A stretch of DNA of 49,704 nt from a virus (Duplodnaviria; Heunggongvirae; Uroviricota; Caudoviricetes): IMG/VR virus record IMGVR_UViG_2703718837_000001. One strand, 5' to 3'. Below are positions 13,999 through 20,530 of this stretch, piece by piece. Position 1 is the first letter of the stretch. Every line of letters begins with the position of its first letter. The notes beneath the pieces are model-generated. The model worked only from the letters and a program-made list of their open reading frames with translations, ran no database searches and had not been told where the DNA came from. A program made the translations under genes and the position numbers.

Positions 13999-14030
13999 GG
14001 TGTCCCCTACCGGGCTTGAACCGGTGGCTG
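13999..14030 (-). other. tRNA 3'-end-like fragment (T-arm plus acceptor 3' strand)
   Basis: Minus strand reads ACCGG-TTCAAGC-CCGGT-AGGGGAC-A-CC: perfect 5-bp T-stem, canonical 7-nt T-loop, 7-nt acceptor strand; no matching 5' half upstream. Confidence 0.35.
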
Positions 14031-14168
14031 TGCGATTATGATCCCTTTGAAAAATAAATGCAGATCTAATAGGTTGTGTTATTTACTCATTGGCACAGAT
14101 TGCCATTACTTATCTAGTTTTAGCCATTTTTACCGCACTTCATCGCTACTAGCCTATGTTTCTTTATG

Positions 14169-15104
14169 TTAGAATGGTACATTGTCATCCATCTCAAAGT
14201 CTGGGGGTGCAACAGATATTCGATGAATTTCATTTCTTTCCATATCCATCATTTGATCCTCCTGCTCCCCATCATCGTACCACGATGAAGTGTCTACCTC
14301 TAAAGCTTCAGATATGACTTCAAATGTTTCAGGAGAGTCTAAGTGAGAAGCCATGTGCAACGTGAACGGATAACTTTCTTCTAGGCTAACCCCATCATTC
14401 CTAGAACCATATTCTTGAGTAACATAGACAGTACCGGAAGCATATATATTGATGTACTCATCATCAATCGACGTGATTCCAAATTCTTCGACTTCAGTGT
14501 AATCTACATACGCATGATTCGCGATAGTCACTAGGTTTTCAGGCATAGAGCTTACCGCCGTGTCAATAACTGCATTTCTAATTTTATCTTCGAGAGTACG
14601 AATTAATTCATCTCTACAAATATGTATACCATTTAGTATTTCTGTAGCGATCTGCAGTATTTGTTTGGCCTTCAGGAAGAACTCTTGAGGTGATGGATGC
14701 ATATATTTCTCTGTTATATGCGTATATTTATTTAAGAAGAAATAAAGCTTAAGCATCTCATCTATTCTTTCATTCGACTCCTCCAGGAACTCTTCCCCCA
14801 AGTACGCATCTGAAATTTTAGCTTGAGAACAGTATTTTAAACGCTGTCTTCTAGATATTTCGTAATGTTCATGTTCTCTCTTATACCACGATGCTTGTAA
14901 TAATTTATCATTCGGAGATTTTTTCTCGATAATATGCTTTATTAGCTCGCGAATTGAAAATGCAAAGTTATGAAAACGTAATGGGTTGCCATGTGATGCA
15001 TAATTTCGCAAACAAGCTGTGAATAATTCTTTTTCAAAATCAGCTTCGAGGTGACTCATAAAATCATTCACAAAATCAAGAGATTGTAGTTTTTTAAGCT
15101 TCAT
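14169..15104 (-). CDS. Hypothetical protein with SSB-like acidic C-terminal tip (…PPDFEMDDNVPF)
   Basis: 311 aa; AT-rich; helical N-terminal part with no OB-fold signature; last residues resemble the E. coli SSB tail PPMDFDDDIPF. Confidence 0.6.
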   Translation of the reverse strand: MKLKKLQSLDFVNDFMSHLEADFEKELFTACLRNYASHGNPLRFHNFAFSIRELIKHIIEKKSPNDKLLQASWYKREHEHYEISRRQRLKYCSQAKISDAYLGEEFLEESNERIDEMLKLYFFLNKYTHITEKYMHPSPQEFFLKAKQILQIATEILNGIHICRDELIRTLEDKIRNAVIDTAVSSMPENLVTIANHAYVDYTEVEEFGITSIDDEYINIYASGTVYVTQEYGSRNDGVSLEESYPFTLHMASHLDSPETFEVISEALEVDTSSWYDDGEQEDQMMDMERNEIHRISVAPPDFEMDDNVPF

Positions 15105-15914
15105 CGTGTAACCTTATATTCCTGTCTCAGATTTAATATCGGATTCAACCGAATCCTCTTCTTCTAAATTTTAAAGTCGTGTAACATTACAAAATATTCA
15201 AGGTTAAATTGAACATATATCATTGTTATTTAGATGTAAGTATATCTGAGCACTCGTTACAATACCAGAATATTACCATCATTCATCATAAAGTAACTAG
15301 CGAAGGTGTGGCGGAAACGTAAGTAAGTTGTTCTCCAGGTAATTCAATACCTGTTCTTTCTAAATAGCTGCGCGGAATAGTGATCTACTTTCGTCCGCCC
15401 TTGCAGGGCGAGACATTAGGTCGGCGTCCCCTACCTGACCGTGCTGCATCAGGCTTGAGTGTGTTGCCCATATGCAACATACCACACATCAGTAAACGGC
15501 AAGTGTAGTAGTATTAGGCGCAGAAATTTAGTACAGCCCAGAATGCGCCGTAACAATCAATAAACCACTACACCCGCGCCCTGGCTGCAATTCGGTAACA
15601 GGGGATCCCCCCTAGCTTCCAGCGTGATTAGCGCCTTCAGCATGACGGAATATACCCGTAAATACGAGGAACTCTACCCAAAGGCTGTTAAGAACCGGCT
15701 GTTACGCTGAATGAAAAAGGACGTAACAGGTAAGGACGCTGACCAGAAGATGGCCCCTTCTCGTTCATCTGGTTAATCAAACCAGCGCCCTTGCCTGTTA
15801 TGCCTCCTCGTTCCCTAATACACAGACGGGGACAACCCCGTGGTGTCAGGCTTCTTAGGCCGCAACCATCATCAGATCATCGTTTGCATTTACTTTAATG
15901 GTCAGTTTGTGACT

Positions 15915-17235
15915 GCTCCCCGCCCTGTCGGGCGAGGCTTCCCACTTCTCAGGCCACTACCGTCTGTGCGACGGATTTACGCTGGCCTCCATGGGCGGAG
16001 ACGACGAGTCCCGCCGCCTGTAGTTCCAGTATTCCTTTTTGCCGGATGTTGAGTGCCGCATTGATATCGCGGTCGTGCTCTGCTCCACATTCAGGGCATC
16101 GCCAGATGCGTTTATGAAGCGGCATTTCCGGCATTTTGTAACCACAACAATAGCAGGCTTTCGAACTGGCAAACCACTGGTCGAGTTTTACTAGGTGAAC
16201 GCCTTTTTCCGCTGCCTTGTACTCCAGCTTTGTGATGAAGCTATGCCAGCCTGCATCACCTATCGCTCTTGCCAGATTGTGGTTTTTCATCATGTTGGCT
16301 GTTTTCAGCGTCTCGACAATTACCGCTTGGTTTTCGTCAACAATTGCACGAGAGAGCTTGTGTTGAAAATCAGCACGGGCATTAGCCACCCGTTCGTGTA
16401 ACGCTGCCAGACGGATTGTGGCCTTTTTACGATTCGCGCTTCCCTTTTGCTTGCGGGATAAGGCTTTTTGTTTGCGTCGCAGATTACGGCTGGCATTGAT
16501 GAGATGGCGGGGATTTGCAATTTTTACCCCATCAGACTTGATGGCAAAGTGCGATAATCCCATATCTAGGCCAGTAACTGTTGATATCAACGTGGGTTTT
16601 GCCGGAGCTTCCATGCCATCATCACAGAGAATTGAAGCATAGTATTTCCCCGTTGCTGAACAGGTGATAGTGATGCTTTTCAGCTTTCCATGAAGTTCAC
16701 GGTGAAGGCGTGCTTCTATTAGGGACAGTTTTGGGATTTTGATGGCATTATCCAGCACCTTAATCCCGACACAGTGATAGCTCGATTGTTTTCCGTGTTT
16801 ACGTTTAAACGTCGGGAACCGCGCTTTCAGCTTCGGATTAAAAAAGTTGGAAAATGCCACATCAAGATTAATTACCGCCTGTTGCAACGCAATAGAATCA
16901 TATTCTTTAAGCCATCCATACCTGCGGGATTTCTTTGCCACTGCAAGCAGCGGTTTCAGATCGTTACGCGGACTTAAATTTACTCCATGTCGCTGGTAAG
17001 CATGTTTTTTGATGTGAAGAGCTTTGTTGTACGCAAAGCGCACTGCACCGAACTGGGCATTGAGGTACTCTGCCTGTTCTGGTGTCGGGTAAATGCGTAC
17101 TTTTGTTGCTCTTAACATAGTCACCGCTCATTGATACAGGCTTTTTATGCTAACACCGTAATGATTTTTTTAAAGCCCTGTTGGCTTTTCGCCTTATATA
17201 CCCGCCCGCATTAGGCGAGGGTTTACGGCGTTTTT
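15915..17235 (-). mobile_element. IS200/IS605-family element carrying tnpB only (boundaries approximate)
   Basis: Intact tnpB flanked by similar GC hairpins of the CCGCCC-loop-GGGCGAG type at 15925-15940 and 17196-17216; no tnpA. Confidence 0.55.
15949..17124 (-). CDS. tnpB: TnpB (OrfB) RuvC-like RNA-guided endonuclease homologue
   Basis: 391 aa; N-terminal MLRATKVRIYPTPEQAEYLNAQFGAVRFAYNKAL; RuvC-I D in TGLDMGL, RuvC-II E in IVETLK, zinc finger CYCCG...CPECG, RuvC-III D in HDRDINAALNI. Confidence 0.9.
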   Translation of the reverse strand: MTMLRATKVRIYPTPEQAEYLNAQFGAVRFAYNKALHIKKHAYQRHGVNLSPRNDLKPLLAVAKKSRRYGWLKEYDSIALQQAVINLDVAFSNFFNPKLKARFPTFKRKHGKQSSYHCVGIKVLDNAIKIPKLSLIEARLHRELHGKLKSITITCSATGKYYASILCDDGMEAPAKPTLISTVTGLDMGLSHFAIKSDGVKIANPRHLINASRNLRRKQKALSRKQKGSANRKKATIRLAALHERVANARADFQHKLSRAIVDENQAVIVETLKTANMMKNHNLARAIGDAGWHSFITKLEYKAAEKGVHLVKLDQWFASSKACYCCGYKMPEMPLHKRIWRCPECGAEHDRDINAALNIRQKGILELQAAGLVVSAHGGQRKSVAQTVVA

Positions 17236-17470
17236 CGCTAAACCGCCGCAAAGTCGCTAACCATGACGAAACCTCTGAAAAAAATGCCCACCCGAAGATG
17301 GGCAAACTGGATGGAAGCTCGTTACGCACTTCGGAGTTGCCTCTTAGGCGCATGGTCAACCTGGCAACTCGGTGGTTTGTCTGGGAGGACTAGGCCCAGC
17401 CATGCTTACCGCCGCGCCTGTCGCGGCTAACAGCTAAATCGCTCTAAAAATCACGATTCATTGATTCGAT

Positions 17471-17487
17471 ATTACACTAATAAATTT
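17471..17487 (+). promoter_or_regulatory. P1 C1-repressor operator-like site
   Basis: ATTACACTAATAAATTT (15/17 to consensus), between the IS left end and the 3' end of the methyltransferase gene. Confidence 0.4.
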
Positions 17488-17488
17488 A

Positions 17489-20400
17489 TTATAGCAATAT
17501 TGCTATAACGTCATGAGCAACACCACGAGTGTCTCCCTTACAAGACACAGAACGTCTGGCAAAAAGAGGTTCCACTCTGAAGCCACTGTCCTGATAAAGT
17601 TCTCTGATGTTTGGCGCGCCACTGTTAGTAATGAGAACCTTTGCACCTCGGCGATGAGCATCCGTCAACAGAGACACCAGGCGTTTTTGCTCTTCAAACT
17701 TAAAGTCATGACCGGAATAGTTCGTGAACCCCTCTGTATTGGGGAGCGGTTCATACGGCGGATCGCAAAAGATGACATCTCCTTCTCCGGCAGCTTCAAT
17801 CACCGCTGCAAAATCACCGCATACAAACTCAGACCGCCCTTCCGCACCGAGGAAGGCTTCCATCTCCTGTAATGGAAAATGCGTAGACTTATACTTCCCA
17901 TACCCGACATTGAACTCACCGGCCTGGTTGTAGCGCGTCAATCCATTAAAACAATGTCGGTTCAGGAACAAAAACGCCGCTGCGCGATGTAAATCATCAT
18001 AGACTTGTTTGTTAAACGCATTCCGTACTGCCAGGAATCCCTCCTGGGTGTTGTAGTCCAGGAAGAAACGATGTGCCAGAGTGATAAGTGAATGCGCCTC
18101 GCGTTGCAGAGTCTTGTAAAAGTTAATCAGGTCAGCATTCACATCATTTAGCAGATTTTCCTGATATCCGGCATTCATGAAGACAGCTCCGCCACCAACG
18201 AAAGGTTCAATCAGGCGCTTCCCTTCTGGCAAATAGCGAAAGATTTGTTCCAGAACACCAAATTTTCCACCAGCCCATTTGAATATGGGCCGTTCGAATT
18301 CTGCCGCTGGTTTAACCTTTCGCTCTTTTGTTTCACTCCCTTCTTTTTGCCGACATGCAGCCTTAGTAATCCGATCGCCAATCCAGCGCATTACTGGTAT
18401 TGCCATACTATTTCCGATCGCTTTGTAACGCGGTCCGTCAGCTGCAAGCATCGCGGCCTCTTCTTCGTTTAAATCAGGATAGTTATTGCGAAGGTATGCT
18501 AGTTCATCTGAAGAAACTTTTTTACGCTTTCCCGTAGGGATCAACGTATGCCAATCAGGAAAACCTTGCAGCCTTTCACATTCGACAGGGGTAAGACGGC
18601 GCATTCTATCGTCGCCGAGCAATACAATTGGTGCTTCATGGTTACATGTCAAAGTTGGTGCCGAATTATCGGTTTTTATCTCAGCCCCTCCTTGCCCATG
18701 TGCCATGGCAATTATGTTTGTATCATCGCAAGATCTGATAGCGATGTTTGAAGTATATCTGGTAGTTTCCTTCCCCTCGCCTCTGCTCGGCGCAATATCC
18801 CGGCGCTCGCCTTCGAACTCAAAAAGTACCGTTGCGGGATCGAGGTCTGTTCGAGCACTTGCGACAACAAACACGCGTCGGCGTCGTTGTGCCACTCCGA
18901 AGTATTGGGCATCAAGGATTCTCCAGGCCACCTTTCGCTGCGGTCCATAAATACAACCACACTGCGGCCACTTTGGAGCATGGCAACCGGTTTTGCCATC
19001 CCACCGCCAGAACGCGTTACTTTTTCCTGATTCAGGTCGATCACCTGGTTCAAATGGCGCATCTTCTCCAGCCAATCCGGCAAGGAAACATCCGAAGGCG
19101 TTATCTGCCGATGACAAGACCCCTGGGACATTTTCCCAGACGATAACGGCTGGTTTGAGAAATGACTCAGCCCGTTTGTCGTCAATTGCATTTGCAAGCT
19201 CCACATACTTTAAAGTTAGCGCGCCACGCTCATCATCAAGCCCACCACGTAATCCAGCGATACTGAATGCCTGACAGTTATGGACCACCGCACCATTGAG
19301 GATATAGGAATGATCACCTTCGACTTCTATGTTGTATACAGTATCTAGGCCTACCGATTTAAACTCTTTGACTGTTCGTAAAAGCATTCCATGAGCCAAT
19401 CTTGATTTACGTGACAATTTCTGCGGGCAGATTGTTACCTGATAATAATTCCGTTGATTTACCACGCGATCCTCAATCACTTTTTTGGGCTCAACTTCAA
19501 TAAAGCTGACCGAAGAAACATAACCACAAGTCTGTGACAACTCCGCAACGCCCCAAGCAAGCGCAGGACTAACACTATTAATTCTAAATCCCGCTTTACC
19601 ACTTGGTGTCCCATCAGTATCAAGATAGCCTTGTAAAAACACATGACGCAATGGATGCGACATCACCCATGCAGGGATACGCTTAGCATGGCTTAACTCG
19701 CCAAAATGTTCATTAAGCCAATTGGCATAACACGTATCATTCAAGGTTACTTTGATGCTCCCTCGGATTTCGCTTGCCACGGAAAATATGTTTTCTGGTA
19801 TGCGGCAATGAAACTTTCTCAATTTCTGGCAATTTATGCCAAAAACAACCGCCTTCTTAGATTTACCTCTCCATCTCCTAATATATCCATCGCCAACATA
19901 AGCGCCCGCAAGATACATAGCCTGTTCTTCAGACAAGAACCGAGAACAAATATCTGGAGATGCAATATTGAAATTAGTTAGAGCACACCATTGATATCCC
20001 GGCATATCACATGCTGCTCGCCATTCCGGTTCAGACAACAACTCTCTCTTAAAATATGTGCCATTTTTCCGGGTGTTTTGGGCTTTCCACCGAACCGCCA
20101 GGAAGGGATGGTCATTGGTTGTTCTTATACCTAAAGGCTGCCCAACGGCATTAAGTAACCCCGTATTAGCTATTTTTGAACCAACTCTTTTTACTTGTTG
20201 TAACCGCCCGAGATGACTGACTACGTAATCGCCAGGGCAAACATCTTCTATTGGTTTATAACCATTTTTACAAAGAACCATATGCCCCGCGGTAAAACAT
20301 GGTGTCCCTCCCACCAGCACATCAGGGGCTTCAATTTCTCCGGCCTGGACTTTTTGGGCGAGTTTTGTCATGTCGCCAAGGTTCGCGACATGGGGCCAGC

Positions 20401-20530
20401 GGTGCGCAAGAACGGCAGAGGGAAAAGGCTCGATTTCAGCAAACCACGCCGGACGCATACCCAACGGTTCCCATGCAATGCTCGCGGCTTCAATTCCACT
20501 GCAAACAGATCCATAGCACAGCTCTCTCAC
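17489..20530 (-). CDS. dmt: Bifunctional DNA methyltransferase: N-terminal C5-cytosine MTase (intein-interrupted) fused to C-terminal Dam-type N6-adenine MTase
   Basis: 1013 aa. C5 motifs: CSGIEAAS (I), GGTP/CQAFS (IV, split by intein), VWENVPG (VI), QRRRRVF (VIII). C-terminal about 270 aa match Dam: [21 protein letters not shown]. Confidence 0.9.
19277..20299 (-). other. Intein (Hint domain with LAGLIDADG homing-endonuclease core) inside the methyltransferase gene
   Basis: 341 codons from Cys78 ([28 protein letters not shown]) to ...ILNGAVVHN, followed by Cys(+1) of CQAFS; block B TTNDHPF; [11 protein letters not shown] and [10 protein letters not shown] motifs. Confidence 0.85.

Follow-up and report, generated by a model that had tools for sequence, protein, structure and literature searches.

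A probable tnpA-less relative of ISEc46 with an intact-looking TnpB–omega-RNA module in the ban-operon leader of a P1-like phage-plasmid

Introduction

The 49.7-kb stretch of viral DNA analysed here (the window) carries a tnpB gene on its minus strand, which raises the question of what element the gene belongs to, whether a guide RNA accompanies it and which DNA the pair would cut. The TnpB–omega-RNA mechanism is established for ISDra2 and GstIS608. A first-pass annotation of the window had proposed an intact TnpB with an overlapping omega RNA at its 3′ end and a guide taken from the flanking DNA.

Element boundaries and insertion site

We compared the window with phage P1 by blastn and found that tnpB lies within an insertion whose breakpoints fall between 15908 and 15909 and between 17237 and 17238, where P1 has an uninterrupted empty site (...GGCGGTTTAG/AAACTGACC..., the slash marking the insertion point). 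Relative to that site, the occupied one has gained exactly 1329 bp after TTTAG with nothing duplicated, and other E. coli copies of the element span precisely 15909–17237. The insertion lies in the C1-controlled ban-operon leader of the phage-plasmid; the neighbouring dmt gene contains a LAGLIDADG-domain intein, a homing element. The element and its ends are as follows.

15909–17237, minus strand: whole element, 1329 bp, very probably a tnpA-less, ISEc46-related member of the IS200/IS605 family, in the order left end (LE), tnpB, right end (RE)
17238–17242, minus strand: TAM and transposon target motif TTTAG (conserved core TTAG), directly 5′ of the LE, read from the P1 empty site
17125–17237, minus strand: LE, 113 nt, with an imperfect subterminal hairpin CCCTCGCC/GGGCGGG at about 17201–17221
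15909–15950, minus strand: RE, with a subterminal hairpin (the sequence of RNA helix H5) and the invariant tail GAGCAGTCAC; cleavage junction after ...GTCAC

The LE sequence CGAAAAACGCCGTAAACCCTCGCC... is kept in relatives and is nearly identical to the LE of ISEc46, and TTAG also stands 5′ of the LE in ISEc46 and most relatives. The right end at 15909, 40 nt beyond the tnpB stop codon, was checked independently against about 70 relatives from other genera (57–87% amino acid identity), which share the ending ...GGGAGCAGTCAC and then diverge; GTCAC or a one-base variant terminates 71 of 74 relatives, with flanks that differ immediately beyond it. The termini, CGAAAAAC... and ...GCAGTCAC, form no inverted repeats. 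As DNA folds, the LE stem CCCTCGCC/GGGCGGG and the RE stem CCTCGCCC/GGGCGGGG have the same stem sequence, and the fold energies of the two hairpins are not significant by themselves. IS200/IS605 elements insert 3′ of one particular motif of four or five nucleotides without target duplication, have no terminal inverted repeats and carry imperfect subterminal hairpins at both ends, and all of these features were found here.

Across the 49.7 kb we found no TnpA-like ORF (best tblastn E = 1.2) and no second tnpB. Autonomous relatives have a divergent HUH/Y1 tnpA, and because this copy is without the Y1 HUH transposase TnpA it is a non-autonomous derivative of the family and not a complete IS. Together, these data make it very probable that the minus-strand stretch 15909–17237, in the leader of the ban operon of a P1-like phage-plasmid, is an IS200/IS605-family insertion sequence of the non-autonomous kind, a tnpA-less relative of ISEc46 with a functional-looking TnpB–omega-RNA module.

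The TnpB protein

The element contains one long reading frame.

15949–17124, minus strand: tnpB ORF, 391 aa from a GTG or 389 aa from the ATG at 17118 (the RefSeq start), with RuvC residues D187/E271/D353 and zinc-finger residues C324/C327/C343/C346

Pfam models PF12323, PF01385 and PF07282 (HTH_OrfB_IS605, OrfB_IS605 and Cas12f1-like_TNB) all match the protein above their cutoffs, giving an architecture of N-terminal HTH/WED-REC, RuvC-like OrfB_IS605 core and zinc-ribbon TNB domain. Among NCBIfam models, guided_TnpB (cutoff 100) matches at 347 bits, and the stricter "exception" model IS200_TnpB scores 387.7, under its cutoff of 425. Residues 5–382 align with the ISDra2 TnpB structures 8H1J and 8EXA (E = 3e-79, ~50% identity), D187/E271/D353 match ISDra2 D191/E278/D361 in the alignment, and the four zinc-finger cysteines (CxxC...CxxC) are all present. 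Judged from its sequence, TnpB is full-length with catalytic triad and zinc finger intact, which upholds the first-pass reading of its RuvC motifs and zinc finger. In RefSeq the protein is already labelled an RNA-guided endonuclease.

E. coli variants inserted after TCAG instead of TTAG carry A61S, G70A, Y75F and I78M in a REC helix that corresponds to the part of ISDra2 TnpB contacting the TAM, a pattern resembling co-variation with the TAM. We treat these substitutions as lineage markers and not as demonstrated TAM determinants, because a mosaic element in plasmid HB-Coli0, inserted at the same P1 site, has them beside an LE of the TTAG type.

The active site also bears on whether this TnpB has been exapted as a TldR-like repressor or another fixed-guide device kept by the phage-plasmid, in place of a transposon maintenance nuclease. 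Such a role would suit the missing tnpA, the fixed position in the C1-controlled leader and a guide that matches a site highly conserved in competing P1-like elements. TldRs, however, have lost RuvC residues and the transposon ends, whereas D187/E271/D353 are intact here, and the copy keeps LE, RE and TAM as mobile copies do, within a family that occupies many different sites with different flanks. With the catalytic triad intact and both transposon ends and the TAM present, we rejected a TldR or domesticated identity and consider exaptation highly unlikely; a nuclease serving its transposon is the reading followed below.

A promoter scan for tnpB found nothing promoter-like above shuffled expectation, the one weak intra-ORF site lying below it. 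A strong terminator at 17304–17285, at the end of the P1 dicF-like region, stands shortly upstream of the element and may leave little read-in from Pban. The lack of a convincing promoter and the nearby terminator are what would be seen if the element were an inert passenger, its ORF and RNA intact merely through recent insertion and its module unexpressed or inactive and of no use to element or phage-plasmid. The absence of tnpA from the window, two substitutions in the LE hairpin relative to ISEc46 and the scarcity of the insertion itself (about 14–18 records, against 569 with an empty site) point the same way. Against this, published TnpB systems are expressed from inside the element, the same insertion, its ORF intact, is still found in plasmids of pig, chicken, sheep and human origin, a plasmid record of Klebsiella pneumoniae matches the element itself, and the RNA helices described below are all perfectly paired in this copy. 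We consider an inert passenger improbable and favour a functional-looking module.

The omega-RNA scaffold

An omega RNA had been proposed across the 3′ end of the ORF and the right end, at about 15800–16100 on the minus strand. A consensus structure computed with RNAalifold from 72 sequences, together with covariation, agrees with that placement and narrows its limits to 15909–16024.

15909–16024, minus strand: predicted omega-RNA scaffold, ~116 nt, five helices (RNAalifold and covariation)
16019–16013/16005–15999, minus strand: predicted helix H1, loop GGGACUC
15995–15991/15945–15941, minus strand: predicted helix H2 (RNAalifold)
15987–15981/15957–15952, minus strand: predicted helix H3 (RNAalifold)
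15974–15970/15964–15960, minus strand: predicted helix H4 (RNAalifold)
15937–15930/15925–15918, minus strand: predicted helix H5, GACA loop
16010–16007 with 15914–15911, minus strand: candidate pseudoknot of loop and 3′ tail (GACU/AGUC), conserved, tentative

The scaffold takes in the last ~25 codons of tnpB, the stop codon (15951–15949) and the 40-nt right end, and terminates exactly at the element boundary. Across the 72 sequences the helices are paired in 97.0% of cells, compared with 34–53% in slid controls; 19–20 of 35 pairs have compensatory changes, and the observed pair statistic was equalled in 0 of 500 shuffles. The covariance-model search proposed in the first-pass annotation was run with model R1, built from relatives of ≤76% amino acid identity with the window and close relatives left out, and gave a sole match in the window, at 15909–16033 (126.9 bits, E = 2.9e-34). 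Third-codon-position entropy falls to 0.77 at codons 371–380, compared with 1.2–1.6 over most of tnpB. The single-sequence fold energy of the region is not significant (z = −1.66), so the structure claim rests on covariation; a search of Rfam 15 at permissive thresholds, over 14000–19000 of the window and the uninterrupted P1 site, gave no omega-RNA family match, so support for the RNA is comparative. These results support a structured omega RNA that is predicted to overlap the 3′ end of tnpB and run to the right end.

The candidate pseudoknot is conserved but essentially without covariation, with any double change in 1 of its 4 pairs, and one clade of relatives (L019–L024) is down two of the four pairs. 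We dropped an extra RNAalifold helix (columns 64–66 with 259–261), which would compete with the pseudoknot and lacks covariation. A tmRNA was also rejected: tmRNA_permuted and beta_tmRNA gave sub-threshold matches (29.9 and 24.1 bits, gathering score 47), owing to a tag-like mini-ORF in the P1 flank, and ARAGORN found none.

Covariation in H5 could reflect TnpA recognition instead of RNA, because H5 doubles as the right-end DNA hairpin. IS200/IS605 ends are subterminal DNA hairpins, and the shared stem sequence of H5 and the LE hairpin would fit a reading of the whole 3′ structure as a DNA-level transposition signal, hairpins bound by TnpA on single-stranded DNA. H1–H4, however, lie 33–111 nt inside the right end, in coding sequence, and we know of no TnpA-binding structures so far inside an element and within a coding sequence. 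Their positions reproduce the experimentally solved stems of the ISDra2 omega RNA, and G–U pairs are common and conserved (GU at columns 115/131 in 65 of 72 sequences, UG at columns 197/252 in 66 of 72); stable in RNA, these would be C–A mismatches on the complementary strand. We give the DNA-signal reading almost no credence and take the structure to be an RNA scaffold.

Guide, target and proposed mechanism

The guide was expected to come from flanking DNA, and the relatives agree with this, their flanks diverging right after GTCAC; the flank beyond the right end is different at every locus, as it should be if the guide is drawn from it.

15893–15908, minus strand: putative 16-nt guide AAACUGACCAUUAAAG, directly 3′ of the RE, in the P1 flank; length assumed from ISDra2

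Both the 16-nt length and the exact TAM (TTAG, TTTAG or TYAG) are assumptions. The feature had originally been drawn at 15800–17124, which overshoots on the 3′ side: the ORF runs only to 15949 and the element to 15909, and a 16-nt guide would reach 15893. The remaining 15800–15892, earlier counted as part of the RNA, is P1 backbone that lies outside the element, the scaffold and the guide.

The guide sequence is identical to the stretch after TTTAG in the P1 empty site and occurs once in the window, preceded there by AGTCAC and not by a TAM. In the empty site, TTTAG/AAACTGACCATTAAAG..., the TAM corresponds to the LE target motif and the guide to the rejoined site, on geometry only (the target stretch 3′ of the TAM is also written AAACTGACCATTAAAGTAAA). 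Because the TAM is the LE target and the guide is the RE flank, the rejoined donor site would be the only perfect target. The TTTAG-plus-guide target is intact in the 569 plasmid records with an empty site and in 20 of 20 P1-like phage records.

On the paradigm of ISDra2 and GstIS608, the tnpB transcript would read through the right end into the flank, and TnpB would bind it and trim it to a ~130-nt RNA with the last ~16 nt as guide. The complex would then cut DNA in which TTAG is followed by the guide sequence, either the rejoined donor site or an insertion-free P1-like genome, and repair of the break from an element-bearing copy would retain or spread the element. The occupied site would be immune to cutting because the element separates TAM from target. 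Transposition would need a Y1 TnpA in trans, for example from a chromosomal ISEc46, whose LE and RE nearly equal those here.

The module could also be a homing or exclusion device between phage-plasmids that cuts superinfecting or co-resident P1-like genomes lacking the element. Such a role is possible because the guide is hard-wired to TTTAG plus AAACTGACCATTAAAG, a site that practically every other P1-like phage or phage-plasmid keeps intact, with the insertion present in only about 15 records, and we put it forward as a doubtful proposal. If it were true, the competitor would be destroyed, or the element would be copied into it by recombinational repair, much as with a homing endonuclease, and the dmt intein would be a second homing element beside it.

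Discussion

As a TnpB–omega-RNA pair this is an ordinary but intact example of a well-known class and adds little conceptually. It gives an enterobacterial TnpB clade an omega-RNA model supported by covariation, with the element ends placed exactly and a TAM and guide defined, and thereby a TnpB system open to direct testing in E. coli, where it occurs naturally. For this copy, the natural target would be a conserved site in a large P1-like phage-plasmid population, a simple system for the question of TnpB homing and competition.

The closest solved counterpart is ISDra2 TnpB of Deinococcus radiodurans (8H1J, 8EXA/8BF8), with ~50% identity over the whole length and the same domains, catalytic residues and zinc-finger residues. 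The ISDra2 omega RNA has the same ~116-nt scaffold size, element order and near-equal distances from the right end, and in both a stem-loop 1, with its loop paired (tentatively here) to the 3′ tail, is followed by a long-range stem 2 that encloses the nested stems 3a and 3b, and by a terminal stem 4 with a tetraloop. The positions (ISDra2 first, from PMC10097598; this element second) are −116..−111/−91..−86 and −111..−105/−97..−91 for stem 1, −5..−3 with −105..−103 and −6..−3 with −102..−99 for the pseudoknot, −84..−81/−35..−32 and −87..−83/−37..−33 for stem 2, −77..−71/−48..−42 and −79..−73/−49..−44 for stem 3a, and −20..−17 and −21..−18 for the stem 4 loop, with the ISDra2 stem 3b region corresponding to H4. 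With the proteins diverged by about 50%, the register of the solved architecture thus appears kept nearly to the nucleotide. Both scaffolds are encoded in the part of tnpB for the C-terminal tail beyond the zinc finger; the stop codon lies 41–43 nt before the right end here, and in ISDra2 the overlap of ORF and RNA extends to −10. The TAM and target is TTAG (TTTAG) here and TTGAT in ISDra2, and the present system further differs in its short stem 3b, its lack of tnpA and its enterobacterial phage-plasmid host.

ISEc46, an IS200/IS605-family element of the E. coli chromosome, has the same TTAG target, tnpB orientation and omega-RNA region. Its LE differs at 2 positions in the first 45 nt and the last 36 nt of its RE are identical, whereas nucleotide identity over tnpB is only about 81%; ISEc46 measures 1763 bp with a divergent tnpA, compared with 1329 bp without tnpA here.

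Cas12f and other type V CRISPR effectors have in common with this TnpB the RuvC and zinc-finger (TNB) core, as seen in NCBIfam and PDB matches, and the guide-RNA pseudoknot topology, with TnpB matching the Cas12f models far below their cutoffs. Unlike type V CRISPR, the present module has no CRISPR array and no Cas1/Cas2, and its guide is hard-wired by the insertion site.

Retention and homing by GstIS608-type TnpB reportedly follow the "peel-and-paste with cut-and-copy" model of Meers et al. 2023. GstIS608 has the same geometry, with the target motif beside the LE as TAM and the RE flank as guide; unlike in the GstIS608 model, the empty-site allele here is also the majority allele among competing phage-plasmids.

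Element boundaries and insertion site

The window is a P1-like phage-plasmid whose region 15500–17500 is matched at 96–99.7% by E. coli plasmids of 65–370 kb, in which tnpB adjoins the dmt methyltransferase gene. Phage P1 matches both flanks and lacks the middle, with blastn breakpoints at window positions 15908/15909 and 17237/17238.

15909–17237, minus strand: IS200/IS605-family element of 1,329 bp, ordered left end (LE), tnpB, right end (RE)
17124–15949, minus strand: tnpB ORF, 391 aa from GTG, the single long ORF of the region

On the minus strand, the empty P1 site reads ...GGCGGTTTAG/AAACTGACCATTAAAGTAAATGC... and the occupied site reads ...TTTAG/CGAAAAACGCCGTAAACCC...(1,329 bp)...GGGGAGCAGTCAC/AAACTGACC..., a comparison that reveals zero target duplication and ends that are not inverted repeats. 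Insertion 3′ of a short specific motif, no duplication and no inverted-repeat ends are hallmarks of the IS200/IS605 family. To check the RE, we fetched 80 related loci of 57–87% amino acid identity from other genera (Photorhabdus, Serratia, Aeromonas, Vibrio, Idiomarina, Halomonas and others). An RE was recognisable in 73 of the 80 (74 sequences including the window), all close to ...GGGAGCAGTCAC, with a terminus of exactly GTCAC in 69 of the 73 relatives and a one-base variant in 3 more. The relatives' flanks are unrelated from the very next base, and this divergence together with the P1 breakpoint places the end of the element at 15909, 40 nt past the stop codon (15951–15949). The stretch 15800–15892, which the first-pass annotation had counted as part of the system, is instead P1 backbone.

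The backbone near the insertion site differs from P1. Window 15300–15573 has no P1 counterpart; P1 carries tRNA-Thr and tRNA-Asn genes ~430 bp downstream of the insertion site (P1 locus L001:1292–1445), and no tRNA genes were found in the whole window (1–49704). On the other side, the dmt ORF (Dam plus C5 methyltransferase; window 17489–20530, minus strand) encodes 1013 aa versus 754 aa in P1 and the near-identical LHM10-1 plasmid, with Pfam matches to Hint_2 (77–126) and LAGLIDADG_3 (298–361) inside the C5-methylase domain. These domains point to an intein carrying a homing endonuclease, inserted at the catalytic GGTP/C...HN/CQAFS motif, and the long dmt form also occurs in the HB-Coli0 plasmid.

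An intact TnpB in a non-autonomous element

RefSeq records of near-identical plasmids start tnpB at an ATG at 17118, two codons downstream of the GTG, and already name the protein RNA-guided endonuclease. Pfam matches to HTH_OrfB_IS605, OrfB_IS605 and Cas12f1-like_TNB give the three domains typical of TnpB, and the NCBIfam model 'guided_TnpB' scores 347 bits (cutoff 100). In a PDB search, residues 5–382 align end to end with the Deinococcus radiodurans ISDra2 TnpB structures 8H1J and 8BF8/8EXA (E = 3e-79, ~50% identity). The earlier call of an intact TnpB is borne out: D187, E271 and D353 correspond to the ISDra2 RuvC residues D191, E278 and D361 in the PDB-based alignment, and all four zinc-finger cysteines (C324, C327, C343 and C346) are kept. 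By all sequence-level criteria, the predicted protein is a bona fide TnpB.

Many relatives, including the E. coli chromosomal ISEc46 (~81% nucleotide identity), carry a divergent HUH/Y1 tnpA between LE and tnpB. In the window copy a 113-nt LE is followed directly by tnpB, and because no TnpA-like sequence was found across the 49.7-kb window we class the element as a non-autonomous IS200/IS605-family member. ISEc46, already catalogued (PMC9956272), differs from the window copy at 2 of the first 45 nt of LE and is identical over the last 36 nt of RE, making mobilisation in trans by the ISEc46 TnpA plausible. The element family has a match in 802 of 5,426 complete E. coli genomes, on chromosomes and plasmids alike. 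The element's terminal 38 nt (RE hairpin plus tail) also occur alone, at 100% identity and with no gene annotated there, in sampled E. coli plasmids of ~77–190 kb (H76–H80, database matches of the RE tail, such as NZ_CP178692.1:76333-76370); they could represent isolated right ends, or what is left of copies that were excised or deleted.

Variants 90–93% identical to the element, on an E. coli chromosome (L083), a ~92-kb plasmid (L084) and an IncF plasmid (L085), are sited after TCAG, not TTAG. Their LE reads CGAGAACCC, and the window-type LE (17221–17242 compared) reads CGTAAACCC. Target choice by IS200/IS605 transposases is guided by LE-internal sequence, and the apparent co-variation of target motif and LE-internal sequence is consistent with LE-guided target recognition by TnpA. 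At the same P1 site, the HB-Coli0 plasmid (NZ_CP020936.1) holds an element 5.6% different from the window copy within flanks that differ by ~0.2–0.5%. The IncF allele L085 accounts for 75 of the 76 differences, and the HB-Coli0 copy is window-type over its first ~110 nt (LE); it is therefore a recombinant, a mosaic in which element alleles were combined by recombination or gene conversion. The mosaic rules out reading the TnpB substitutions of TCAG-sited alleles as determinants of the target motif adjoining LE (TAM).

Covariation supports a predicted omega-RNA

As a scan of Rfam 15 returned no matching family for the omega-RNA, we tested the RNA comparatively, aligning the last 220 nt up to RE from 72 distinct sequences. 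RNAalifold reported compensatory double changes in 19 of 35 pairs. We then wrote out five helices (H1–H5) and a candidate pseudoknot and counted pairs, with 3′ partners slid by 1–3 columns and 500 column shuffles as controls. Standard pairs fill 97.0% of cells, versus 34–53% with slid partners; both-sided changes occur at 20 pairs (315 cells), and none of the 500 shuffles came up to the observed values. H4 alternates between CCGUC/GACGG and CUGGC/GCCAG, CCGGU/ACCGG, CUCGA/UCGAG or CGAGU/ACUCG; H2 between CCCAU/GUGGG and CCAAU/GUUGG or CUUAU/AUAAG; and H1 between GCGGC/GUCGU and GCCGA/UCGGU. H5 doubles as the RE DNA hairpin. The pseudoknot is a candidate based on conservation and analogy, not on covariation, and part of the pairing is lost in one clade. 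Folded as a single sequence, the RNA has an unexceptional energy (z = −1.66).

A covariance-model search, which the first-pass annotation had proposed as a check, was run with a model built from 53 relatives of at most 76% protein identity, leaving out the window and its close kin; across the whole window it returned a single match, at 15909–16033 on the minus strand (126.9 bits, E = 2.9e-34). Of the scaffold first placed at about 15800–16100, covariation and this match uphold the overlap with the tnpB 3′ end and the RE, and 15800–15892 drops out. The scaffold overlaps only the TnpB C-terminal tail (~residues 367–391), past the zinc finger. Third-codon-position entropy is 0.77 at codons 371–380 versus 1.2–1.6 over most of tnpB, and amino acid variability is high at the H4-covarying positions. 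Far from the omega-RNA, third-position variability among relatives also dips to 0.84 at codons 261–280 (window ~16285–16344, minus strand), around the catalytic E271, which could reflect codon bias, strong amino acid conservation or another overlapping signal.

Proposed guide, target and mechanism

A guide derived from flanking DNA, as first proposed, agrees with the unrelated flanks directly past RE in relatives, without the backbone further out. If 16 nt long as in ISDra2, the guide would be AAACUGACCAUUAAAG (15908–15893), starting at the first base past the scaffold. The motif 5′ of LE is TTTAG, of which TTAG is kept in ISEc46 and most relatives. Because the guide is the RE flank and TTTAG precedes LE, the sole perfect target is predicted to be TTTAG+AAACTGACCATTAAAG, the empty site, present verbatim in P1. 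The guide sequence occurs once in the window, preceded by AGTCAC with no TAM, so the occupied locus is predicted to be self-immune. An 80-nt empty-site probe spanning the P1 junction had matches in 569 plasmid records, of which almost all are P1-like and non-mobilisable and 394 match with at least 99% identity; the site is uninterrupted in 20 of 20 P1-like phage records. Insertion at the P1 site was seen in only 14 E. coli genome records, and ~18 plasmid records hold a complete copy with at least 94% identity (site individually checked for a minority).

Five bases 3′ of the guide, the P1 backbone holds a mini-ORF (window 15855–15887, minus strand; P1 L001:1817–1921), GCAAACGATGATCTGATGATGGTTGCGGCCTAA, encoding ANDDLMMVAA-stop and resembling a tmRNA tag-coding sequence. 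The Rfam model tmRNA_permuted stays below its gathering score of 47, at 29.9 bits for the window and 24.1 bits for uninterrupted P1, and ARAGORN found no tmRNA in the window or P1 locus.

By the TnpB paradigm, tnpB transcription would continue past RE into the flank, TnpB would bind and trim the transcript to an omega-RNA of ~130 nt, the ribonucleoprotein would cut TAM-flanked empty sites, and recombinational repair off the element-bearing copy would restore or spread the element. A promoter scan gave no promoter-like site above shuffled expectation. A strong terminator-like intrinsic hairpin (17285–17304, minus strand; TGCCCATCTTCGGGTGGGCA then T7) lies 48 nt upstream of LE, within a stretch aligning to the P1 'dicF-like region' of the C1-controlled ban operon, with which the element is co-oriented; Rfam reported no DicF in P1 at E ≤ 1. 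The least ordinary reading, in which the window copy would work in homing or exclusion between P1-like phage-plasmids, is possible though unlikely. We found no paper on the omega-RNA of this element or on TnpB in P1-like phage-plasmids.

Comparison with the ISDra2 omega-RNA

The ISDra2 omega-RNA has been described by cryo-EM with a 116-nt scaffold (PMC10097598).

Helices of the window and ISDra2 omega-RNAs, numbered from RE (−1 = 15909).
Stem 1 (H1): window −111..−105 / −97..−91; ISDra2 −116..−111 / −91..−86
Pseudoknot (candidate): window loop GACU (−102..−99) with AGUC (−6..−3); ISDra2 −105..−103 with −5..−3
Stem 2 (H2): window −87..−83 / −37..−33; ISDra2 −84..−81 / −35..−32
Stem 3a (H3): window −79..−73 / −49..−44; ISDra2 −77..−71 / −48..−42
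Stem 3b (H4): window −66..−62 / −56..−52; ISDra2 −70..−49
Stem 4 (H5): window −29..−22 / −17..−10, loop −21..−18; ISDra2 loop −20..−17

The helices agree almost position for position, and in both systems the scaffold overlap is confined to the C-terminal tail of the protein.
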